Part shown: positions 7,767 to 53,190 of the stretch, in pieces
Layout: each line of letters starts with the position of its first letter
Numbering within the stretch: the first letter of the stretch is position 1
Program-made: the position numbers and the translations under genes
Source: Escherichia coli
GTDB taxonomy: Bacteria; Pseudomonadota; Gammaproteobacteria; Enterobacterales; Enterobacteriaceae
Strand: one strand, 5' to 3'
Assembly: GCF_044324785.1 (NCBI RefSeq)
Contig: NZ_CP172129.1
Length of the DNA: 64,000 bases
The notes under the pieces: model-generated
The model's input: only the letters and a program-made list of their open reading frames with translations
Told to the model about the DNA's origin: nothing
Databases searched by the model: none

Positions 7767-8093
7767 ATGACTAAAAATACTCGTTTTTCCCCCGAAGTCC
7801 GTCAGAGGGCGATTCGTATGGTTCTGGAAAGTCAGGGCGAATATGACTCACAGTGGGCGGCAATTTGTTCCATTGCCCCAAAGATTGGCTGTACACCGGA
7901 GACTCTGCGTGTCTGGGTACGCCAGCATGAGCGGGATACCGGAGGCGGTGATGGCGGGCTCACCACCGCTGAACGTCAGCGTCTGAAAGAGCTGGAACGT
8001 GAAAATCGTGAACTGCGCCGCAGTAACGATATCCTTCGCCAGGCTTCCGCTTATTTTGCGAAGGCGGAGTTCGACCGCCTCTGGAAAAAATGA
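7767..8093 (+). CDS. IS629 transposase OrfA
   Basis: 108-aa HTH protein [19 protein letters not shown]… matching IS629/IS1203 OrfA. Confidence 0.85.
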
Positions 8094-37006: not shown

Positions 37007-38041
37007 TTAAAGCTGTGCTGCCAGAGTTGATAATAATTGTTCTGTCTGTTGCCATGATATGCATTCATCAGTAACAGACTGACCATACTCTAGCGGAAAA
37101 CTATCGGATTGTTTTCCATCTTGTAAAAAGCTTTCCACCATAATGCCAGCTACATATCCTGGTATTTTTTTCCGATTATCTATAACTTGACGTGCAACGG
37201 AAATTTGCCGTTTAGCCACTTTACCGCTATTACCATGGCTACAATCAATTATCAGACGATGGTTAATACCCTCATCATGCATTAATTTCACTGCCTTAGT
37301 TATATCAGACAAACCATAGTTAGGTTCTCTACCTCCACGTAATATTAGATGTCCATGTGGATTGCCATCGGTTAATAGTGTAGATATACTATTTGTTAAA
37401 GATGTCATATATACAATATGTTGTTCACGGGCTGCAATAATAGCGTCAATAGCTAAGTTAATATTTCCATCAGTACTGTTTTTAAATCCAACTGGACAAT
37501 GTAAACCAGACGCAAGTTGACGATGCGTTTGTGATTCAGTGGTTCTGGCACCAATAGCACCCCAACATATTAAATCAGCAATATAGGGAGTAAGAAAAGG
37601 ATCGAGGAATTCTGTAGCGGTTGCGACACGCATCGTTGTGATTGAAGACAAACACTGGCGAGCATATCGTATCCCTTTCTCAACATCATAACTTCCATTT
37701 AGATCAGGATCGTGCATTATTCCCTTCCAGCCTTTACGGGTTCGAGGTTTCTCAAAATAAGTGCGCATTACAATGTACATTTTCGATAAGTACTTATTCT
37801 GTAATACGAACAATCGCTTCGCATAATCAACTGCGGCCTGAACGTCATGGATTGAGCATGGACCAACAATCACAAGTAAGCGAGGATCTTTTCCCAGCAA
37901 AATATTCGCTATAATATCTCGTTGCAGAGAGATCCATGTTACGGTTTCTTCCGATACTGCGATTTCTTTATGAATCTCGCCCACAGTGGGTAAACTGCCA
38001 AGCAACTTCCCGCGGTAGATTAATTTACTAGCTGACTGCAT
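37007..38041 (-). CDS. Class I 3-deoxy-7-phosphoheptulonate (DAHP) synthase, AroG/AroF/AroH-like
   Basis: 344-aa ORF with DAHP synthase I features (…LLVIVGPCSIHD…IDCSHGNS…). Confidence 0.8.
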   Translation of the reverse strand: MQSASKLIYRGKLLGSLPTVGEIHKEIAVSEETVTWISLQRDIIANILLGKDPRLLVIVGPCSIHDVQAAVDYAKRLFVLQNKYLSKMYIVMRTYFEKPRTRKGWKGIMHDPDLNGSYDVEKGIRYARQCLSSITTMRVATATEFLDPFLTPYIADLICWGAIGARTTESQTHRQLASGLHCPVGFKNSTDGNINLAIDAIIAAREQHIVYMTSLTNSISTLLTDGNPHGHLILRGGREPNYGLSDITKAVKLMHDEGINHRLIIDCSHGNSGKVAKRQISVARQVIDNRKKIPGYVAGIMVESFLQDGKQSDSFPLEYGQSVTDECISWQQTEQLLSTLAAQL

Positions 38042-38244
38042 CTTGTCTCCTAAAAGCGCTATTTCAGACCATCAGTTGCACACAGTAGATGATAATGATA
38101 ATCATTTACTGTATAATTGGCAATATATGGGGATTCATAGTCATTTCTGAGATAATATACGTTAGGCCTTCTCTCCCGTACGGAAATCACTTGTTTTCCG
38201 TAAATTACCTGAATCTTAATCCCTGAGCTGCGGCTAGCTGTGGA

Positions 38245-38582
38245 ACTCACAAAAGCTGACCGGGCCGTGGCACAGCCTCTCTGCTGGCAGAACAGCGTAC
38301 TGCAGAAGTCGTCGTACTGCCGCTGGTCCCGGCATCAGGTCTGCCCGCAGATGGCACTTCTGCCACTGATCTGCCGGTGGAGCTGAACGGCATGACATAT
38401 CAGGCCTGCCGTGGGGATTTTGTGGTGCGCCTCGACGGCAGCACCTGTCTGCAGTTATAGAATAAAGAAGGCGGGGAGGTACGCAGGGAGGGCGATCCGC
38501 TGGAAGTGGCGTAGTGGCTGTAGGCCTGTAATGATGCAGGAATAGAAGTTCGTGTACAGGTTAATGAAAGCATCACCCCGTA
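38245..38582 (+). pseudogene. Decayed copy of the 3' half of the gene at 47720-48310, with in-frame stops
   Basis: DNA aligns with 47955-48310 at high identity but carries stop codons (…CAGTTATAGAATAAA…, …GTGGCGTAGTGGCTGTAGGCC…). Confidence 0.6.
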
Positions 38583-38600
38583 AAAACATGCCGGCACGGT

Positions 38601-38909
38601 TTACACATCATTCCATGGTGGCAGCCGGTTAACTTTCCTGCGCCACCAGTGGAAAGAGGCCATGAGCAGTCCGAACAAAAAACCACTCGTGATACTTATA
38701 ATAATGGCCTCACCTGCTACCATTCCTGACGGCCCCCAGTACATAAACCACATTGCACATCCCCAGGAAATACCCCATAAGCCCCCCATCAGCAGCGTAA
38801 CCTGCCAGAACGGCATAAAGGGCAATGGCGGAAGCCGGATACCCAGCCGCCAGAGAATACGCAGCAGAGGAGGAGCATAATTACTCCGCCACATCTTTTT
38901 GCTGTCCAT
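38601..38909 (-). CDS. Small membrane protein, paralog of 48330-48587
   Basis: 102-aa ORF with hydrophobic segments; 28 aa longer than the paralog at 48330-48587. Confidence 0.45.
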   Translation of the reverse strand: MDSKKMWRSNYAPPLLRILWRLGIRLPPLPFMPFWQVTLLMGGLWGISWGCAMWFMYWGPSGMVAGEAIIISITSGFLFGLLMASFHWWRRKVNRLPPWNDV

Positions 38910-39076
38910 CAGGGCAATTGCCCGGGCTTTTTTTGCTCAAAAGTCACAGGAGCACCTCCGTTCCATGATGTAAACGTGACACAACTTATTGTTATTGATT
39001 ATTATTATCATACCGTGATTATGTTGTCATGCACCTGTACACTGATAAAAGAAAGGGAGAACAGGAGGCTGGCTGA

Positions 39077-39384
39077 ACAACCAATCCGTTCGTCCAGTTC
39101 AATGGCGGCTATCAGGTTCTGCTCCGCAATGTACTCACGAATGCGCTTCCTGTCCTGGCTGGTCAGCATGGTCCAGAATATCTCCATCATTTACCGGCGA
39201 CTTTCCTGCTCATTTCATCCCGCCATGCAGCAGCGGAAGATTCGACCATGTCATGGGGAAGCACATCGCCGCGCTCGAGTTGCTGACGTCCTGCCTCAAC
39301 CTGGTCACGGAACCAGGTATTATGCTGCCGTTCCACGGTCTGGCGCATAAAATCCCGGATTAACTGAGAGCCATTACGGTCCAT
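39077..39384 (-). pseudogene. Remnant of the ParE/RelE-type toxin and RHH antitoxin pair (toxin truncated after ~40 codons; antitoxin frameshifted at its 5' end)
   Basis: DNA aligns with 52190-52580; the toxin ORF runs into unrelated sequence; a 1-bp difference (GCAGGGCCAT versus GCAGCGGCCAT) removes the antitoxin start. Confidence 0.65.
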
Positions 39385-39742
39385 GCTTTTTGCAGGGCCA
39401 TAAAAGCATCCTTCAGTTCAGCGTCAATTCTTAAACTCATATTAACCTGTGCCATTTATCACCCCGTCATTACCACGTATATACACAGTATATAACGATT
39501 CAGATATCGTCACTAGGATATGCCGCGCCAGCGGCATGGAAGGCGGCACTCCGCTGTTTCATATGATACCGCCGAAGCCCGATGTAAGCCGCTACAGTCG
39601 TCCGAAAGTCACCAGCCTCCTCCCCCCTGCCGTCATCCGTGCATCAGCTATGCACTGAGTATGCCTGCCCTTCCCTAGAGAATCCTGCTAGGCTTGCCAC
39701 ACTGATATATCTTGACTTTATGTAAACGATATGACACTTTAA

Positions 39743-39761
39743 CATGATAATGATTACCATT
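39743..39761. promoter_or_regulatory. Fur box upstream of cvaA
   Basis: CATGATAATGATTACCATT in the cvaA promoter region. Confidence 0.5.
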
Positions 39762-40065
39762 CTCTTTTAATATACAGAGAAACTAGGAAATAGATGAATG
39801 AGTTATGTTACTTTAATATTCTCTGACAATAACCTAAATCAGTTAGATTATTGTCATTTAATAAATAATGACATTCTTTCATCATAAATAAAAAGACTAT
39901 TGTTTATAATATTGTTCTCAGCATTATATGATTATTTATCCTGATAACTCTCCTATGCTGTATGTTTATATGATTTTCCTTGAAACATATAATGCAAATT
40001 TTCGATTTATTTTCCATCATTAATCCAGATAAACAACAAACTAATAGTATGCAAGGAGACATTAT

Positions 40066-41340: not shown

Positions 41341-42109
41341 CAGGAATTTCAGACAAATTATAAATCTGCTTGATTTGCGCTGGCAACGTCGTGTTCCGGT
41401 TATTCATCAGACGGAGACCGCTGAATGTGGACTGGCCTGCCTAGCAATGATATGCGGTCATTTTGGTAAGAATATTGACCTGATATATCTTCGCCGGAAG
41501 TTTAATCTCTCTGCCCGTGGAGCAACCCTTGCAGGAATCAATGGAATAGCGGAGCAACTGGGGATGGCCACCCGGGCTCTTTCACTGGAGTTGGATGAAC
41601 TTCGAGTCCTCAAAACGCCGTGTATTCTCCACTGGGATTTCAGTCACTTCGTCGTTCTGGTCAGCGTAAAGCGTAACCGTTATGTACTGCATGATCCGGC
41701 CAGGGGCATAAGATATATCAGCCGGGAGGAAATGAGCCGATATTTTACAGGCGTTGCACTTGAGGTCTGGCCCGGAAGTGAATTCCAGTCGGAAACCCTG
41801 CAGACCCGCATAAGTCTTCGTTCACTGATTAACAGTATTTACGGTATTAAAAGAACGCTGGCGAAAATTTTCTGTCTGTCAGTTGTAATTGAAGCAATCA
41901 ATCTGCTAATGCCGGTGGGGACACAGCTGGTTATGGATCATGCTATTCCTGCGGGGGACAGAGGGCTACTGACGCTAATTTCTGCTGCTCTTATGTTTTT
42001 TATATTACTCAAAGCTGCAACGAGTACGCTGCGCGCATGGTCTTCACTGGTTATGAGCACGCTCATCAATGTACAGTGGCAGTCGGGGCTGTTCGATCAT
42101 CTTCTCAGA
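41333..42109 (+). pseudogene. cvaB: cvaB 5' portion (C39 peptidase domain and first TM segments), interrupted by IS903
   Basis: [20 protein letters not shown]…ETAECGLACLAMI… reading frame ends at the IS903 left end after …LFDHLL. Confidence 0.85.
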
Positions 42110-43166
42110 GGCTTTGTTGAATAAATCGAACTTTTGCTGAGTTGAAGGATCAGATCACGTATCTTCCCGACAACGCAGACCGTTCCGTGGCAAAGCAAAA
42201 GTTCAAAATCACCAACTGGCCCACCTACAATAAAGCCCTCATCAACCGTGGCTCCATAACTTTCTGGCTGGATGATGAAGCTATTCAGGCCTGGTATGAG
42301 TCAGCAACACCTTCTTCACGAGGCAGACCTCAGCGCTATTCTGACCTTGCCATCACTACTGTGCTGGTCATTAAACGCGTATTCAGGCTGACCCTGCGGG
42401 CTGCGCAGGGCTTTATTGATTCCATTTTTTCTCTGATGAACGTTCCGCTACGCTGCCCGGATTACAGCTGTGTCAGCAGGCGGGCAAAGTCGGTTAATGT
42501 CAGTTTCAAAACGCCCACCCGGGGTGAAATCGCACACCTGGTAATTGATTCCACCGGGCTGAAGGTCTTCGGTGAAGGCGAGTGGAAAGTCAAAAAGCAT
42601 GGCCAGGAACGCCGCCGTATCTGGCGTAAGCTGCATCTCGCCGTTGACAGTAAAACACATGAAATCATCTGCGCTGACCTGTCGCTGAACAACGTTACGG
42701 ACTCAGAGGCCTTCCCCGGGTTAATCCGGCAAACCCACCGGAAAATCAGGTCAGCCGCCGCCGATGGCGCTTACGATACCCGGCTATGTCACGATGAACT
42801 GCGGCGTAAGAAAATCAGCGCGCTTATCCCTCCCCGAAAAGGTGCGGGTTACTGGCCCGGTGAATATGCAGACCGTAACCGTGCAGTGGCTAATCAGCGA
42901 ATGACCGGGAGTAATGCGCGGTGGAAATGGACAACAGATTACAACCGTCGCTCGATAGCGGAAACGGCGATGTACCGGGTAAAACAGCTGTTCGGGGGTT
43001 CACTGACGCTGCGTGACTACGATGGTCAGGTTGCGGAGGCTATGGCCCTGGTACGAGCGCTGAACAAAATGACGAAAGCAGGTATGCCTGAAAGCGTGCG
43101 TATTGCCTGAAAACACAACCCGCTACGGGGGAGACTTACCCGAAATCTGATTTATTCAACAAAGCC
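42110..43166 (+). mobile_element. IS903 (IS5 family), 1057 bp, flanked by 9-bp target-site duplication CTTCTCAGA
   Basis: Terminal inverted repeats GGCTTTGTTGAATAAATCG… at 42110 and …TTTATTCAACAAAGCC ending at 43166; direct repeats CTTCTCAGA at 42101-42109 and 43167-43175. Confidence 0.85.
42142..43110 (+). CDS. IS903 transposase
   Basis: 322-aa ORF filling the element; DDE-type transposase. Confidence 0.8.
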   Translation: MKDQITYLPDNADRSVAKQKFKITNWPTYNKALINRGSITFWLDDEAIQAWYESATPSSRGRPQRYSDLAITTVLVIKRVFRLTLRAAQGFIDSIFSLMNVPLRCPDYSCVSRRAKSVNVSFKTPTRGEIAHLVIDSTGLKVFGEGEWKVKKHGQERRRIWRKLHLAVDSKTHEIICADLSLNNVTDSEAFPGLIRQTHRKIRSAAADGAYDTRLCHDELRRKKISALIPPRKGAGYWPGEYADRNRAVANQRMTGSNARWKWTTDYNRRSIAETAMYRVKQLFGGSLTLRDYDGQVAEAMALVRALNKMTKAGMPESVRIA

Positions 43167-44495
43167 CTTCTCAGACTACCGCTGGCGTTTTTTGAACGCC
43201 GAAAATTAGGTGATATCCAGTCACGTTTTGACTCCCTTGACACATTGAGGGCCACATTTACCACCAGTGTGATCGGGTTCATAATGGACAGCATTATGGT
43301 TGTCGGTGTTTGTGTGATGATGCTGTTATACGGAGGATATCTCACCTGGATAGTTCTCTGCTTTACCACAATTTACATTTTTATTCGTCTGGTGACATAC
43401 GGCAATTACCGACAGATATCAGAAGAATGTCTTGTCAGGGAGGCCCGTGCCGCCTCCTATTTTATGGAAACATTATATGGTATTGCCACGGTAAAAATCC
43501 AGGGGATGGTCGGAATTCGGGGGGCACACTGGCTTAATATGAAAATAGATGCGATAAATTCGGGTATTAAGCTAACCAGGATGGATTTGCTCTTCGGAGG
43601 AATAAATACCTTTGTTACCGCCTGTGATCAGATTGTAATTTTATGGCTGGGAGCAGGCCTTGTGATCGATAATCAGATGACAATAGGAATGTTTGTAGCG
43701 TTTAGTTCTTTTCGTGGGCAGTTTTCGGAAAGAGTTGCCTCTCTGACCAGTTTTCTTCTTCAGCTAAGAATAATGAGTCTGCACAATGAGCGCATTGCAG
43801 ATATTGCATTACATGAAAAGGAGGAAAAGAAACCTGAAATTGAAATCGTTGCTGATATGGGGCCAATATCCCTGGAAACCAATGGTTTAAGCTATCGTTA
43901 TGACAGTCAGTCAGCACCGATATTCAGTGCTCTGAGTTTATCTGTAGCTCCGGGGGAAAGTGTGGCTATAACTGGTGCTTCCGGTGCGGGAAAAACCACA
44001 TTAATGAAAGTACTATGTGGACTATTTGAACCTGATAGCGGGAGGGTACTGATAAATGGTATAGATATACGCCAAATTGGAATAAATAATTATCACCGGA
44101 TGATAGCCTGTGTTATGCAGGATGACCGGCTATTTTCAGGCTCAATTCGTGAAAATATCTGTGGTTTTGCAGAGGAAATGGATGAAGAGTGGATGGTAGA
44201 ATGTGCCAGAGCAAGTCATATTCATGATGTTATAATGAATATGCCAATGGGATATGAAACATTAATAGGTGAACTTGGGGAAGGTCTTTCTGGCGGTCAA
44301 AAACAGCGTATATTTATTGCACGAGCCTTATACCGGAAACCAGGAATATTATTTATGGATGAGGCAACCAGTGCTCTTGATTCAGAGAGTGAACATTTCG
44401 TGAATGTTGCCATAAAAAACATGAATATCACCAGGGTAATTATTGCACACAGAGAAACAACGTTGAGAACTGTTGATAGAGTTATTTCTATTTAA
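43167..44495 (+). pseudogene. cvaB: cvaB 3' portion (remaining TM domain and ABC ATPase)
   Basis: Frame resumes …RLPLAFFERRKLGDIQSRF… after the IS903 duplication; Walker A GASGAGKTT, signature LSGGQKQR. Confidence 0.85.
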
Positions 44496-47462: not shown

Positions 47463-47723
47463 ATGGATGAAGAAAGGGTGTTTTCACTCAGCTATGAACA
47501 ACTGACCCGGTTTGCGGAAAAACGCATCCGGGAATGCAATCTGGACAGCCAGGGCGTAACTTATCTCTGCGAGTCAGCCAAAGCCGGAGCTGTGCTGATC
47601 TTCTGGCATGAACTGGCCATAAATGGCTATGCCTCAATGAATGCCATAAAGAGACAGGAGATCATTGACGCCGACCATCAGCGCCTCAGAAAGCTCATCT
47701 GGCCGGAGGATGACTGGAAATGA
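47463..47723 (+). CDS. Hypothetical protein (86 aa), first gene of an overlapping two-gene unit
   Basis: ORF with ATGA stop/start overlap to the next gene. Confidence 0.4.
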   Translation: MDEERVFSLSYEQLTRFAEKRIRECNLDSQGVTYLCESAKAGAVLIFWHELAINGYASMNAIKRQEIIDADHQRLRKLIWPEDDWK

Positions 47724-48310
47724 CTCAGAGCCGCCGACCGTCGCCACTGCAGCGAAGAATGCTGATTGTGCTGGCTGCCCTTGATGAAAAACGGCCAGGA
47801 CCCGTGCTGACGCGGGACATAGAACGGGTGCTGGAGCGAAGCGGGGAAGCCCCAGTCTACGGGCCAAACCTGCGCGCCTCCTGCCGTCGTCTGGAGGATG
47901 CCGGCTGGCTGCGTACCCTGCGCGCTCCGAACCTGCAGCTGGCAGTGGAGCTGACGGACGTCGGCCGGGCCGTGGCACAGCCTCTGCTGCTGGCAGAACA
48001 GGACCGCCTCCGGGCAGAACAGCGTGCGGCAGAAGTCGTCGTACTGCCGCTGGTCCCGGCAGCAGGTCTGCCCGCAGATGGCACTTCTGCCACTGATCTG
48101 GCGGTGCAGCTGAACGGCATAACGTATCAGGCCTGCCGTGGGGATTTTGTGGTGCATCTCGACGGCAGCACCTGTCTGCAGTTATGGAATAAAGAAGGCA
48201 GGGTGGTACGCCGGGAGGGCGATCCGCTGGAAGTGGCGCAGTGGCTGCAGGCCTGTCACGATGCAGGAATGGAGGTTCGCGTACAGATAAATGAAAGTGC
48301 CGCTCCGTAA
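47720..48310 (+). CDS. Hypothetical protein (196 aa), GC-rich
   Basis: Coupled to the upstream ORF; a decayed second copy exists at 38245-38582. Confidence 0.45.
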   Translation: MTQSRRPSPLQRRMLIVLAALDEKRPGPVLTRDIERVLERSGEAPVYGPNLRASCRRLEDAGWLRTLRAPNLQLAVELTDVGRAVAQPLLLAEQDRLRAEQRAAEVVVLPLVPAAGLPADGTSATDLAVQLNGITYQACRGDFVVHLDGSTCLQLWNKEGRVVRREGDPLEVAQWLQACHDAGMEVRVQINESAAP

Positions 48311-48329
48311 GAACACGCCTGTGCACGGT

Positions 48330-48587
48330 TTACACATCATCCCATGGTGGCAGCCGGTTAACTTTCCTGCGCCCCCAGTAGATAAACCACATTGCACATC
48401 CCCAGGAAATGCCCCATAAGCCCCCCGTCAGCACCGTGACCTGCCAGAACGGCATAAAGGGTAATGGCGGAAGCCGGATACCCAGCCGCCAGAGAATACA
48501 CAGAAGAGGAGGGGCATAATTGCTCCGCCACATCTTTTTGCTGTCCATCAGGGCAATGGCCCGGGCTTTTTTCTGCTCAAAGGTCAC
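48330..48587 (-). CDS. Small membrane protein (85 aa), paralog of 38601-38909 with a 28-aa in-frame deletion
   Basis: Hydrophobic ORF; aligns with 38601-38909. Confidence 0.4.
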   Translation of the reverse strand: MTFEQKKARAIALMDSKKMWRSNYAPPLLCILWRLGIRLPPLPFMPFWQVTVLTGGLWGISWGCAMWFIYWGRRKVNRLPPWDDV

Positions 48588-48715
48588 AGGAGCACCTCCG
48601 TTCCATGATGTAAACGTGACACAGCTTATTGTTATTGATTATTATTATCATGCTGTGGTTATGTTGTCATGCATCAGTACACTGACAAAAGTGCAAAAGA
48701 AAGGAAAACAGGCAG

Positions 48716-49051
48716 ATGAACAGAAAATATTATTTTAATAATATGTGGTGGGGATGGGTGACGGGGGGATATATGCTGTATATGTCATGGGATTATGATT
48801 TTAAATACAGATTACTGTTCTGGTGTATTTCTCTCTGCGGAATGGTTTTGTATCCGGTTGCAAAATGGTATATTGAAGATACAGCTCTGAAATTTACCCG
48901 GCCTGATTTCTGGAACAGCGGTTTTTTTGCTGATACACCTGGAAAAATGGGATTGCTTGCTGTTTATACGGGTACTGTTTTCATATTATCTCTTCCGTTA
49001 AGTCTGATATATATTCTTTCTGTTATTATAAAAAGGCTGTCTGTAAGATAG
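48716..49051 (+). CDS. Colicin Ia immunity protein
   Basis: 111-aa membrane protein MNRKYYFNNMWWGWVTGGYMLYMSWDY… matching colicin Ia/Ib immunity; convergent with cia. Confidence 0.85.
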   Translation: MNRKYYFNNMWWGWVTGGYMLYMSWDYDFKYRLLFWCISLCGMVLYPVAKWYIEDTALKFTRPDFWNSGFFADTPGKMGLLAVYTGTVFILSLPLSLIYILSVIIKRLSVR

Positions 49052-49072
49052 ACAGCCTGTCTTATATTTTAT

Positions 49073-50953
49073 TTAAATACCCCAGAACTTATTCGCTTTT
49101 TCCACAAGCGATTCATCAATCAGCGCACCGGTGACAGCCATCAGTAAACCATACCCGATAATGCCTAAAGCGCTTCCGGTAAGAATACTGAAGACCAGTG
49201 CAACAAGAGCCGTTGCGGCATTGCCTGCTATAATGGCTTCTGTTTTAACAAAAAGAGGACGCCAGTTCTCTGTCCGGACACCCTTACCAAACTCAGTGAT
49301 CCAGTCAGCAAGACTTGTAAATTTTCCTGCATATCCCAGTCCCCGACTGAATCTGTTCAGATTAGACGATATATCAGACAGCTTCACTGACTCAAGGGCT
49401 GCGGCAATCGCTGCACGATCTTTTGCATTAATTTTTTTGTTAATGTCAGCCCGGTACTTTTCATACGTTTTTAATGCCTCTTCAACATTACGTATTTTCT
49501 TCCCTTTAGCCTGCCCGGCCATCTCTCTGGCTAACTGCTCAGCTTTTGCACCATATTTTTCTGAAACTGATTTCAGGAACTCTGTTGTGAAATTAATTGC
49601 GTCTTTCGTTGCCTTCAGTTCATCCTGTTTTCTTTTCTCTTCCGCTATCTTCTGATTGATGCCGGCAAGCTGGTTACGGATATTCTCTTTTTCCTTCAAC
49701 AGGGCATTAAGAGCGTCATTTGCATGCTTTTGCTCATTTGTTCTGGCACTGAGGTTATTTCTCGCAGAATTTACCGCAGATTCAGCAGAGGTGATTTTAT
49801 TTCTGGCATCAAGCAATCTTTGCCGTAACTTATCCCATTCAGCAACTTCAGCATTATAAATTTTCTTGTCACCTTCCACATCCTCTGTCACCACCGGATT
49901 CCGGTCATTCAGAATATTGCGTTTATAGTCCAGACCGGAATGGGTCAGAAGATAATTCAGGTTTGCACGGTTATCGATGACTGCGCTGGTTGTGATTTTT
50001 ATCGTACCGGCAAATCTCGGATCACCGCTCACAACAATAGAATGATTTGTTGATGAACGCCCCGGGAATTTTTCAGGGGAAACTATCGTTTTGCCGTCAA
50101 GCGTGTTTTTCTGTTGCGTCAGCTGTTGCTCAGCTCTGGTTAATGCATTACGGGCCGTGTTAAGCGATTCCGTCACTGAACTGAGTTTATTCCGGGCCTC
50201 TGAAATGGCCCTGTCATTCCGTGTCTGCTGCCCGAGCAGACGGGCCTGTTGTGCATCAAGAACGGCAAGGGCTGCCCCGCCATTTTTTTCCAGCTCTGAC
50301 AACCGCGTGTCCAGAATACCTTTTCTGCGCTCGTATTCAGCAAGCATATCAGCGGCCTTCTTGTCTGCGTTCTGCGCATCCTTCTGCCGTTTTTCAGCCT
50401 GTTCGATTAACGACCTGGCCTCCCGGGGAGATATACGAAGAGAATCAGCATCAGCAAAGAGCATCCGGCTCTCTGTATGCAGCCGGAGGGCATCATATCC
50501 GGCGATTTCAGTACGGAATCCGTATTCTCTCAGCTCTGCCTGCAGGAGTCTGAACTCCTGTCGTGTAATATCAGCGGCATCTGCGTTTCCGGCACGGAGT
50601 GTTTTCAGTGTGTTTTCATCTTTTTCCCTTGCAGCAATCGCCGCAGAGAGGCGTTTTGCGGCTTCAGTACGCTTATTCTCATTCTCTTTCTGCTGCGCGC
50701 TGAGCGTCATTTTGTACGCTGTGATTTCCTTGTCCCTTTTTTCGATATCACTTCGGGTTGGGGAATCATCGACCCACTCGTTTCCGCCCCAGATGGTTTT
50801 GTTCCCGAAGGAACTCCATGCAGGCGGGGTACCATGAAAGACATCGACACGTGGAGGGTTTACATAAATATCAACGGCCATAATTTCATGGCCATCTGAA
50901 TCATACCCCAGCGATTCTGCACCGGGATTTGTAATACGTACAGGGTCAGACAT
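49073..50953 (-). CDS. cia: Colicin Ia (pore-forming colicin)
   Basis: 626-aa ORF MSDPVRITNPGAESLGYDSDGHEIMAVDIYVNPPRVDVFHG… with long coiled coil and C-terminal hydrophobic channel domain. Confidence 0.9.
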   Translation of the reverse strand: MSDPVRITNPGAESLGYDSDGHEIMAVDIYVNPPRVDVFHGTPPAWSSFGNKTIWGGNEWVDDSPTRSDIEKRDKEITAYKMTLSAQQKENENKRTEAAKRLSAAIAAREKDENTLKTLRAGNADAADITRQEFRLLQAELREYGFRTEIAGYDALRLHTESRMLFADADSLRISPREARSLIEQAEKRQKDAQNADKKAADMLAEYERRKGILDTRLSELEKNGGAALAVLDAQQARLLGQQTRNDRAISEARNKLSSVTESLNTARNALTRAEQQLTQQKNTLDGKTIVSPEKFPGRSSTNHSIVVSGDPRFAGTIKITTSAVIDNRANLNYLLTHSGLDYKRNILNDRNPVVTEDVEGDKKIYNAEVAEWDKLRQRLLDARNKITSAESAVNSARNNLSARTNEQKHANDALNALLKEKENIRNQLAGINQKIAEEKRKQDELKATKDAINFTTEFLKSVSEKYGAKAEQLAREMAGQAKGKKIRNVEEALKTYEKYRADINKKINAKDRAAIAAALESVKLSDISSNLNRFSRGLGYAGKFTSLADWITEFGKGVRTENWRPLFVKTEAIIAGNAATALVALVFSILTGSALGIIGYGLLMAVTGALIDESLVEKANKFWGI

Positions 50954-50993
50954 TCGGTATCTCCTTCATCCGCTGAGGAAAACAAATGAATTA

Positions 50994-51024
50994 ACTGCTT
51001 ACGTATGTGGATACATATACAGTA
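50994..51024. promoter_or_regulatory. Probable SOS operator (tandem overlapping LexA boxes) in the cia promoter
   Basis: On the cia strand: TTGACA …17 nt… TACTGTATATGTATCCACATACGTAAGCAG, containing CTGT-N8-type half sites. Confidence 0.55.
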
Positions 51025-51138
51025 TTAATTTATTAAGGAGAAAATGGCATGTCAAGATTTAATGATAGTGATTATCATTAACATGAAGTGATTTTACGTC
51101 TGGATAACGTAAATGATTGCGGTATACAGGCCAGGCGG

Positions 51139-51987
51139 TCAGATTTTCAGCCGTGCCTGTTCCTGCAGCAGTTCCAGATGATATGCAGCAATAGCGTTTA
51201 CCACCCCTGCCGTCATCCGTGCGTCGGCGATCGCTGAGTGTGCCTGCCCTTCCCAGGTCAGTCCGGCCTGGCTGGCAGCACAGGCCAGTGAAATCGTGCC
51301 ATAGCGGTTGGTGGCCCCATAATATCCTGCAGCCAGCTCCATCGCACAATATACCGTCAGTTCTTCCAGCCAGTCAGCCGGATCGCTATGTGCGGCAGCA
51401 GTCTGTTTCAGAATGCGGATGTCGAACCGGGCATTAAAGATAATTACTGGTCGGTCCCCGATTGCATGACGCAGTTGCCGCGCCACATCTGTCCATGATG
51501 GTGCGCCGCAGAGAGCCTGCTCGCTGATACCATGCACAGCGGCGGCCTGCGCCCCGATGGCGACCGTGGGCTTCAGCCTGGTTTCAAATACCACCTGACC
51601 GGACGCATCGGTCAGGCCGATTTCCAGAGCTTCCGCGGTATTGTCCAGTCCTGTCGTTTCAGTATCCAGAAAGAGCGGTGCCAGACTCAGCCAGTCATAT
51701 GCCTGCCGTGCCATCCGGCCACTGGTGCTGTTAAGTCTGGATAAAACGGAAAGTCGCTGGCCAGCCAGAAGTTGTTTACTCGTCAGTGGGCGTTTCTCAC
51801 GCATCGGAACACAGTCTGCAATTCGGTATACAGCGAACCTGCCACCATAAGTGTTTTTATACCACTTAACCGGCTCAGCACCGGGGGCTGGCTTCATTCT
51901 GAATTCATCGCGCAGCCGTTCTTTCGAGAAACACCTGTCTTCGGCAATCGCCTGCGCACGTCTGGTGGCCAGCTCATCATTATTCAT
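51139..51987 (-). CDS. DnaQ-like 3'-5' exonuclease (DEDDh) domain protein with an N-terminal extension
   Basis: 282-aa ORF with Exo I motif (…LFLDTETTGLD…) and later H/D motifs (…HSAIADARMTA…). Confidence 0.6.
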   Translation of the reverse strand: MNNDELATRRAQAIAEDRCFSKERLRDEFRMKPAPGAEPVKWYKNTYGGRFAVYRIADCVPMREKRPLTSKQLLAGQRLSVLSRLNSTSGRMARQAYDWLSLAPLFLDTETTGLDNTAEALEIGLTDASGQVVFETRLKPTVAIGAQAAAVHGISEQALCGAPSWTDVARQLRHAIGDRPVIIFNARFDIRILKQTAAAHSDPADWLEELTVYCAMELAAGYYGATNRYGTISLACAASQAGLTWEGQAHSAIADARMTAGVVNAIAAYHLELLQEQARLKI

Positions 51988-52032
51988 GGTTCTTGCATCT
52001 CCGTCAGACCTTTTTATATCCGGACAGCCCCT

Positions 52033-52314
52033 CTATGGCCACTTCTGTGCAGTATGCAATACACGCAGGATATACACTTTTCCCCACTGGCTGTCGACCT
52101 CATAAACCAGAACAAAATGCGGGTGAATAACCAGTTCCCGGGTACCTTCCACACGACCGTTGCGGCCTTTATACGGCTGCCCGGCCAGGCTGCTGGCTGA
52201 ATAACCAATCCGTTCGTCCAGTTCAATGGCGGCCATCAGGTTCTGCTCCGCAATGTACTCACGAATGCGCTTCCTGTCCTGGCTGGCCAGCATGGTCCAG
52301 AATATCTCCATCAT
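52033..52314 (-). CDS. RelE/ParE-superfamily type II toxin
   Basis: 93-aa ORF overlapping the upstream antitoxin by 4 bp; ParE/RelE-like C-terminus (…HPHFVLVYEVDSQWGKVYILRVLH…). Confidence 0.65.
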   Translation of the reverse strand: MMEIFWTMLASQDRKRIREYIAEQNLMAAIELDERIGYSASSLAGQPYKGRNGRVEGTRELVIHPHFVLVYEVDSQWGKVYILRVLHTAQKWP

Positions 52315-52580
52315 TTACCGGCGACTTTCCTGCTCATTTCATCCCGCCATGCAGCAGCGGAAGATTCGACCATGTCATGGGGAAGCACATCGCCGCGCTC
52401 GAGTTGCTGACGTCCTGCCTCAACCTGGTCACGGAACCAGGTATTATGCTGCCGTTCCACGGTCTGGCGCATAAAATCCCGGATTAACTGAGAGCCATTA
52501 CGGTCCATGCTTTTTGCAGCGGCCATAAAAGCATCCTTCAGTTCAGCGTCAATTCTTAAACTCATATTAACCTGTGCCAT
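52311..52580 (-). CDS. Ribbon-helix-helix type II antitoxin
   Basis: 89-aa ORF MAQVNMSLRIDAELKDAF… upstream of the toxin. Confidence 0.6.
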   Translation of the reverse strand: MAQVNMSLRIDAELKDAFMAAAKSMDRNGSQLIRDFMRQTVERQHNTWFRDQVEAGRQQLERGDVLPHDMVESSAAAWRDEMSRKVAGK

Positions 52581-53190
52581 TTATCACCTCGTCATTACTA
52601 CGTATATACACAGTATATAACGATTCAGATATCGTCACCAGAATATGCCGCGTCAGCGGCATGGAAGGCGGCACTCTGTTGTTGCATATGACACAGGAGT
52701 AAAACCGCCGAAGCCCGGCGTAAGCCGGTACGGACTGATAGATTTCACCTTACCCATCCCCAGCCCTGCTAGGCCATATCCGCTTTCAGCCATGATAAAG
52801 CTTCTGTGCGCGGTCGGAGTGGTCCCGACGAGGGTTTACCCGAAGTCGGGGCGTATCTCCGCGTTAGCGGGCCGTCAGGGCCGCTTACGAGCGTGTACTC
52901 AATACTTTCAGCGAGAAGACTGACAGCCATGATGGAGTATAGTTACAACATTCATAATTAAAAGCGACTCTGTTCCGGCCCGAAGGGCCGGGGCGGGGCC
53001 GCTTTTCAGTTATGAGGGAGGGGCTTTGTGGTTTCAGTTCTGCGCTGGTTCGGGGTTTTTCTGGAGGTTGGTTTTGTGTGTTGTAACTAAAGTGGCTCCG
53101 GTTGGGGCCCGCCGTTTACGGTGGGAGGTGCATATCTGTCTGTCCACAGGACAGGCAGTGAATAGGTTTTCTTTTTAAATGAATGTAATT

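Follow-up and report, generated by a model that had tools for sequence, protein, structure and literature searches.

A probable fossil of the yacABC-ybaA backbone segment beside the colicin V genes of an Escherichia coli ColV-ColIa plasmid

We have found that the DNA between the DAHP synthase gene and the colicin V genes of a large pS88-type ColV-ColIa virulence plasmid (IncF) from E. coli holds a decayed second version of the module that flanks the colicin Ia locus. The window (the whole 64,000-nucleotide stretch that was analysed) is part of this plasmid and reads, in order, iroBCDEN, the DAHP synthase gene (37007-38041), the decayed copy, referred to here as the relic, cvaA-cvaB-cvaC-cvi, remnants of metabolic genes, the segment from ydfA to yacA (47463-52731) and a Tn3-family transposon; gene names follow the annotation of pS88 (PMC3438092). 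The relic extends from 38228 to 39704 and is probably a non-functional fossil of a ydfA-ydeA-ybaA-(variable slot)-yacC-yacB-yacA backbone segment, belonging to a diverged lineage that we call R, lodged between the iro/DAHP-synthase island and the ColV cassette and bearing a 1,833-bp deletion flanked by repeats. We found no explicit description of the relic in the literature; its sequence and pseudogene annotation are already public in hundreds of records, and the mechanisms involved are textbook ones. Its parts are as follows.

38228-38600, plus strand: ydeA', a pseudogene made of the 3' 125 codons of a 196-aa backbone gene (BLASTN and codon walk)
38601-38909, minus strand: ybaA, relic allele, encoding a DUF6404 membrane protein (Pfam and alignments)
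38910-39067, no strand assigned: region upstream of ybaA, with the leader and Shine-Dalgarno sequence of a colicin-I immunity gene ('stub' allele, GAAAGGGAGAACAGGAG...)
39062-39187, minus strand: yacB', the first 42 of the 93 codons of a ParE/RelE-fold toxin gene
39068-39076, no strand assigned: deletion junction, with the single surviving copy of GCTGGCTGA
39187-39455, minus strand: yacA', an antitoxin pseudogene (PGAP and alignment)
39456-39630, no strand assigned: P', the yacA promoter/operator region and sequence upstream of it, from the diverged R lineage (alignments)
39624-39704, minus strand: yacC stump, left from the 3' part of a diverged exonuclease gene and joined both to P' and to AT-rich DNA upstream of cvaA

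A BLASTN comparison of positions 38000-39900 with the whole window returned four matches: 38228-38653 with 47933-48382 (84.9 % identity, E 3e-147), 38732-39051 with 48371-48691 (93.8 %, E 5e-139), 39062-39595 with 52186-52731 (94.7 %, E 0, with a core at 39080-39460 of about 99 %) and 39624-39675 with 51204-51254 (88 %, E 5e-12). Together with base-level alignment these establish 38228-39595 as a decayed homologue, 85-95 % identical, of the ColIa-flanking ydeA-ybaA...yacB-yacA module (47.9-52.7 kb), as the first-pass annotation had proposed; the region it delimited is real, but the edges lie at 38228 and 39704 rather than at 38245 and 39665. RefSeq PGAP already calls the relic genes pseudogenes (for ybaA, see below). 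That annotation had also named two ways in which it could be wrong, namely similarity limited to low-complexity stretches and an artefact of assembly. None of the four matches is in low-complexity sequence, and E-values from 1e-139 to 0 are obtained over non-repetitive DNA. The 2.1 kb surrounding the relic is 100 % identical across many complete plasmids whose assemblies are independent and come from various hosts and laboratories (in NZ_CP026940.2 even at the same coordinates as in the window). Because about 320 PLSDB records carry the whole relic, neither chance similarity nor assembly collapse is tenable, and we give this explanation practically no weight.

The intact counterpart of the relic in the window has the canonical order.

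47463-47723: ydfA
47720-48310: ydeA
48330-48587, minus strand: ybaA
48716-49051: imm
49073-50953, minus strand: cia
51139-51987, minus strand: yacC, whose product is predicted to be a DnaQ-like 3'-5' exonuclease
52033-52314, minus strand: yacB
52311-52580, minus strand: yacA, with the promoter region reaching to 52731

In IncF plasmids yacA-yacB(-yacC) lies directly beside the RepFII replicon, with yacA nearest to it. The slot beyond yacC is occupied by cia-imm in the window and by a 160-aa ORF following an imm stub of about 7 codons in three other loci (L011, L012 and L014), and is empty in pLH13-b-A, where ybaA lies 85 bp from yacB; beyond the slot come ybaA, ydeA and ydfA. In IncI-type plasmids the neighbour of ybaA is cib-imm (IncI-gamma/K1) or other cargo (IncK2/Z), and the IncI-gamma/K1 record has yagA, not yacC, beyond the colicin gene, sharing only the part from ydfA to the colicin. 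This variation of the slot among plasmids indicates that the segment is ordinary plasmid backbone with a plastic middle. No Pfam or NCBIfam match was found for ydeA (196 aa), ydfA or the 160-aa ORF. We note that in two IncFIB/FIC loci, L012 (NZ_PP215914.1, 1-3781) and L014 (NZ_CP148987.1, 1960-5781), ydeA is interrupted elsewhere, by an island with a gene for a 1,270-aa 'anti-phage transmembrane ATPase', which is another cargo insertion into the same backbone segment. We also note that from 53191 onward a TnAs1-like Tn3-family transposon with tet(A) sits just upstream of the ColIa-side yacA promoter, between that promoter and the RepFII replicon; the end of this transposon is found within yacA itself in L012 and L014.

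The left arm of the relic combines a dead gene with a comparatively well-kept one. The ydeA' pseudogene, placed by PGAP at 38222-38523, is cut at codon ~72, where the iro/DAHP-synthase island starts, and in the codon walk its frame is shifted by the loss of 22 nt at codons 89-96 and interrupted by amber stops at codons 156, 174 and 177. Between 38458 and 38523, new amber codons (TAG, from TGG or CAG) account for three of some 14 substitutions specific to the lineage, a mild excess (p ~0.02 by a rough binomial estimate) that is compatible with pseudogene decay. The relic ybaA encodes 102 aa (97 aa in PGAP, where it is called intact), having lost the first ~13 codons of the 115-aa reference through a 1-bp deletion at ~38933, and its product matches Pfam DUF6404 (PF19942) with an E-value of 4.9e-31 over model positions 14-114 of 115. 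The ColIa-side ybaA has suffered a 90-bp in-frame deletion between GCC(A/C)CCAGT repeats that leaves 85 aa; the 90 bp are still present in the relic, which is thus the better preserved of the two, and reference plasmids encode the full 115 aa. The in-frame stops first reported in the 196-aa homologue are therefore real, but the ColIa-side membrane protein gene, taken then to be intact, is the more damaged copy. The roughly 30 residues missing from its product include a predicted membrane segment that is kept in IncI and other IncF references.

In the right arm both genes of the toxin-antitoxin pair are broken, in the way first described. Homology to yacB ends after codon 42; the Pfam ParE_toxin domain (PF05016) covers residues 4-92 of intact YacB, and the relic, which keeps residues 1-42, has no complete toxin ORF. 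Nor does it have a complete antitoxin ORF, as a 1-bp deletion at ~39395 loses the yacA' frame after codon ~20. What is left is a 65-aa ORF (39187-39384) corresponding to the C-terminal part of YacA, with weak similarity to RelB antitoxins and no obvious Shine-Dalgarno sequence ahead of its internal ATG; intact YacA itself has a weak match to RHH/RelB-type antitoxins. With the toxin truncated and the antitoxin frameshifted, addiction is impossible. Upstream, P' has lost 11 bp and shows ~82 % identity to the promoter region on the ColIa side; its stretch 39456-39566 aligns with the promoter region of intact copies, the TATATACACAGTATATAAC palindrome included, so that a promoter/operator appears to be retained here.

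The internal junction of the relic can be understood by reference to a full-length allele that occupies the same position in pVM01 (NC_010409.1), pNIT-HK (NZ_MF474175.1) and pMS15052A (NZ_CP082098.1). There the order is DAHP synthase, ydeA', 115-aa ybaA, imm stub, 160-aa ORF, yacC, yacB, yacA, P', yacC stump, IS2 and cvaA. The full allele shares with the relic its site between the DAHP synthase gene and cvaA, the truncation and stops of ydeA' and the junction of P' with the yacC stump, and differs from it in having 1,833 additional bp, an intact yacA, a complete yacB, the 115-aa ybaA and IS2 upstream of cvaA; its alleles up to ~330 bp from the junction are the consensus ones and not those private to the relic. 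The 1,833 bp that are gone from the relic comprise the imm stub, the 160-aa gene, yacC and the 3' half of yacB. In the full allele the 9-bp repeat GCTGGCTGA occurs twice, at an interval of exactly 1,833 bp (positions 7834 and 9667 of locus L013), the left copy ending at the imm start codon and the right one lying within yacB codon ~42, and the repeat extends to a match at 13 of 15 positions (CAGGnnGCTGGCTGA). The relic has one copy only, at the point where its two homology arms overlap by 15 bp. With two repeats in the undeleted allele, one in the relic and an exact fit of the length, the simplest reading of these alignments is that a module without a colicin lost the DNA between two short direct repeats through a slipped-strand or illegitimate event.

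The ColIa locus of the window does not offer the same substrate: the left copy of GCTGGCTGA is absent from it; its imm leader reads AACAGGCAGATG. The relic imm leader agrees base for base with the stub allele (that of L012 and of the full allele) and not with the ColIa allele. Of a colicin Ia/Ib operon only the imm leader and Shine-Dalgarno sequence (39043-39076) are left in the relic, and the closest full allele has an imm stub of ~7 codons, then a hairpin, and no colicin ORF; the stub shows that a colicin-I operon was present at a still earlier time. The first-pass annotation had seen here a recombination scar from which ~3.5 kb is absent. The scar is genuine and the figure holds for a comparison with the ColIa locus, but the gap is 1,833 bp when the most similar full-length allele in this position is the reference, and cia was not removed, the 9-bp repeat existing only in the colicin-less allele. 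Comparison with other plasmids, suggested then as a way to tell which arrangement is ancestral, yielded the full-length allele; the true progenitor we can only infer, since we found no undeleted module with relic-private alleles around the junction. We note that IS2, ~185 bp upstream of cvaA (equivalent to window 39881-39885), is found in the full-allele loci L013, L015 and L016 and not in relic plasmids; IS2 and the full-length allele appear to be linked and usable for lineage typing.

The distribution of the relic follows the ColV cassette and not the ColIa locus. In PLSDB, with the whole relic defined by at least 80 % query coverage, cvaA is found in 393 records, the whole relic in 319 and a complete ColIa locus in at most 113, and ColIa is missing from roughly two in three of the relic-bearing ColV plasmids; direct inspection of NZ_CP010147.1 and pEND_Eco 123-1 showed the relic present and ColIa absent. 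The relic is thus part of the ColV cassette, with a fixed place beside cvaA, and would be older than the association with the window's ColIa locus. It had been proposed instead that the relic is a paralogue made within the plasmid from the ColIa-flanking module, having lost 3.5 kb (imm, cia, yacC and the 3' half of yacB) through recombination that linked the ColV and ColIa regions. In both arms the alignment to the ColIa locus does keep order and orientation, and the yacB'-yacA core shows ~99 % identity with its ColIa-side counterpart, but the arms outside this core are only 85-94 % identical (a divergence of 5-15 % over the relic as a whole), ColV plasmids without ColIa carry the relic, GCTGGCTGA before the imm ATG and the imm leader itself are those of the pVM01/L012-type stub allele, and the 90-bp deletion of the ColIa-side ybaA is not in the relic. 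We therefore regard an origin within the plasmid as highly improbable and do not retain that claim. Gene conversion between the two toxin-antitoxin cores was also considered; identity of ~99 % is seen in the full allele and other lineages too, and is not diagnostic.

The exonuclease fragment at the right end has a history of its own. Its match runs to 39675 with the window's own yacC and reaches 39704 with more distant yacC alleles. The junction in which yacA promoter fragment, yacC 3' stump and cvaA upstream region follow one another (39540-39800) is present in 381 of the 393 cvaA records in PLSDB, including small IncF ColV plasmids (pRM10466-2, pEA13_1 and CP059926.1) that retain only the promoter fragment (from ~39466 or ~39511) and the stump and have nothing of the relic to the left of that fragment; this junction is therefore separate from the internal scar, and older. 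The 88 % match to the exonuclease 3' end had been counted as part of the scar, which it is not, although the match is real. In the same small plasmids the stump is followed by cvaA...cvi, then by the first 8 nt of yacC and then by yacB-yacA-RepFII, an arrangement that weakly suggests that the P'-stump junction arose when the cva cassette inserted into yacC. The suggestion stays weak because only those 8 nt of the yacC 5' end are kept, the adjoining 228 bp are not yacC, and the left stump is far more diverged than the right side. In the relic, 28 bp that may be filler or native upstream sequence separate P' from the stump, and weak matches in other plasmids extend to ~39627-39630.

Two observations concern the genes near this junction. 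A gene for a CPBP-family intramembrane protease lies directly 3' of the yacA promoter fragment in the small ColV plasmid CP059926.1 (locus L007, 4103-4756) and in the same place in locus L008; such proteases are often of the bacteriocin self-immunity type, and the leftover yacA promoter may drive this gene in small ColV plasmids. In the window, cvaB, which encodes the colicin V exporter, is broken by a copy of IS903 (42110-43166) with canonical GGCTTTGTTGAATAAATCG inverted repeats and a 9-bp target duplication, CTTCTCAGA, at 42101-42109 and 43167-43175. As cvaB is intact in other ColV plasmids, the window plasmid has probably lost colicin V export.

Differences between the relic and the full allele are unevenly spread, with 0-1 in 38235-38932, 12 in 38933-39395 and ~1-2 in 39396-39885; the 12 lie within ~330 bp of the junction, compared with ~3 in the outer ~1.2 kb. 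In one of the two alleles, then, sequence must have been exchanged by recombination or mutations must have built up in a local burst. From L012 and L014 the full allele diverges by 5.5 % in its initial ~535 bp and by 0.3 % in the 2.1 kb that follow, with the switch of lineage falling between 38919 and 38933, and the relic is ~5.5 % diverged from L012 all along to the junction. A single recombination breakpoint would explain both this switch and the start of the relic-private alleles (of which 11 of 12 are fixed in all relics examined), and for this reason we think it more likely that an L012-like sequence has replaced the middle of the full allele than that mutations clustered in the relic. 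Flank markers conflict, as the left flank groups the full allele with window-type relics and the right flank groups it with small ColV plasmids, and by these markers the relic and the full allele look like sister lineages rather than nested ones.

This bears on whether the allele of pVM01 and pNIT-HK is the unaltered direct ancestor of the relic, whose 11-12 private changes would then have come with or after the deletion, through error-prone repair or drift. The outer flanks are identical, the stops are the same and the exact repeats are present in the full allele; moreover, its cva-side alleles are common to small ColV plasmids, while relic plasmids form a clade of their own (39738, 41181 and 41992). 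Yet a count of 12 differences within 463 bp, when ~855 bp of neutral flank has ~3, is far above drift, the switch at 38919-38933 coincides with the start of the relic-private alleles, for which one breakpoint is simpler, and no graded series of private alleles is seen among relic plasmids. We consider direct descent a possibility, though an unlikely one, and prefer a replacement within the full allele.

Recombination between the two copies does occur. We searched for two chimeric queries representing the products expected from crossover between direct repeats. The first (relic ybaA joined to imm) was matched end to end, at 99.5 %, by one record, pEc673-1, ordinary ColIa plasmids reaching at most 96.6 %. 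The map of pEc673-1 reads iro-DAHPS-ydeA'-ybaA(relic)-imm-cia-yacC-yacB-yacA-TnAs1, without cva, and the crossover lies in 38943-38983, every informative site being relic-type up to 38942 and ColIa-type from 38984. The second (relic joined to ColIa-side promoter and flank) was also matched by one record, pEND_Eco 14033-1 (99.9 %), in which the relic joins RepFII repA-finO-traI directly and the crossover, which links the relic to the RepFII-side promoter, lies in 39396-39463, with relic alleles up to 39395 and non-relic alleles from 39464. The colicin V operon is lost in both. The crossovers in these two natural derivatives are clean and single and fall inside identical stretches of 41-68 bp, suggesting that the relic is a substrate for ordinary, RecA-type homologous recombination between direct repeats. 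That each product is a single record among ~400 indicates that the process is real but rare.

The first-pass annotation had gone further and suggested a recombination hotspot. Recombination between the copies does occur, as pEc673-1 and pEND_Eco 14033-1 show, but we see no dedicated or site-specific mechanism. The break points in the segment (38228; the L012/L014 equivalent of 38398; 48657/52016 in L022; 39068-39076; 39624-39630) belong to independent rearrangements with different end points, attributable to IS or Tn elements, microhomology or plain homology; they share no common core site of the res, Xer or att type, and no recombinase gene, cognate or otherwise, is found beside the relic. 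With break points that all differ and no adjacent recombinase gene, a mechanistic hotspot is not supported. A further role for the arms, which we put forward as speculative and rather doubtful, is as portable homology for RecA-mediated integration of the iro-ColV block beside the yacAB/ybaA segments of other IncF or IncI-type backbones. A 2007 study by Jeziorowski and Gordon, cited in PMC6920910, is said to have found ColV repeatedly linked to a non-random subset of ColIa plasmids. Portable homology, if real, would help to explain that pattern and would account for the mosaic full-length allele of pVM01-type plasmids.

Might the relic have been kept for a function? The 65-aa C-terminal YacA fragment could be expressed from P' and neutralise the YacB of competing plasmids (anti-addiction), or the 102-aa YbaA could be functional. 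The promoter/operator sequence and the RelB-like ORF survive, the ybaA ORF is intact according to PGAP, and the sequence is invariant across hundreds of plasmids. This invariance, however, reflects recent spread of one cassette, the flanking non-coding DNA being equally invariant; the internal ATG has no obvious ribosome-binding sequence before it, natural derivatives drop either arm with no obvious penalty, and the full allele coexists within the same plasmid family. Retention for function is thus very unlikely. By itself the relic is probably inert today, its only visible effect being occasional recombination with the intact copy that deletes the colicin V genes.

The anatomy of the relic, its deletion between repeats as measured against the full allele, its distribution and the natural crossover products are all directly shown. 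We infer the following order of events, with replication slippage as the mechanism of deletion. An R-lineage module would have been trapped between two blocks of cargo, the iro/DAHP-synthase island cutting ydeA at codon 72 and the colicin V cassette becoming fused upstream of the yacA promoter via the yacC stump. Decay of ydeA' would have preceded the 1,833-bp deletion, a RecA-independent event between the GCTGGCTGA copies that took out the colicin-immunity stub, the 160-aa gene, yacC and the 3' half of yacB, and the antitoxin frame would have been lost after it. The relic would then have spread along with the ColV cassette before joining the window's ColIa locus. Its arms (~0.8 kb and ~0.5 kb) would since have acted as direct repeats of the intact module, homologous recombination occasionally deleting the cva operon, with or without ColIa, and would also exchange alleles with the modules of other plasmids. 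For annotators and plasmid typers, a second 'yacAB/ybaA' match in a ColV plasmid is a remnant, in all likelihood dead, that belongs to the ColV cassette and not to the ColIa locus; the relic defines two alleles, deleted and full-length, that can serve as lineage markers, and its crossover with the intact module gives a documented example of how ColV-ColIa plasmids come to lose the colicin V operon. None of this challenges the present view of plasmid evolution, and the reconstruction is of local interest.

Lastly, the relic can be compared with known systems. IncF ColV-Ia plasmids of the pS88 type carry a yacABC-cia-imm-ybaA-ydeA-ydfA segment (PMC3438092) with the same gene order and orientation, to which the relic arms are 85-99 % identical; the relic differs in having lost the middle (slot cargo, yacC and half of yacB), in being cut at both outer ends, in its diverged lineage and in lying away from the replicon. 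The relic derives from an operon of the YacAB type II toxin-antitoxin system and retains its promoter region but, unlike that system, has both genes disabled and does not act as an addiction module; YacAB on the Shigella plasmid pINV has itself been reported to be inactive (PMC9455713). Deletions between short direct repeats (microhomology) and RecA-dependent deletions between long ones are both textbook mechanisms in plasmids. The 9-bp repeat at the internal junction resembles the former, and the clean single crossovers of the two natural derivatives resemble the latter; compared with these textbook cases the relic shows nothing unusual and no site-specific element.
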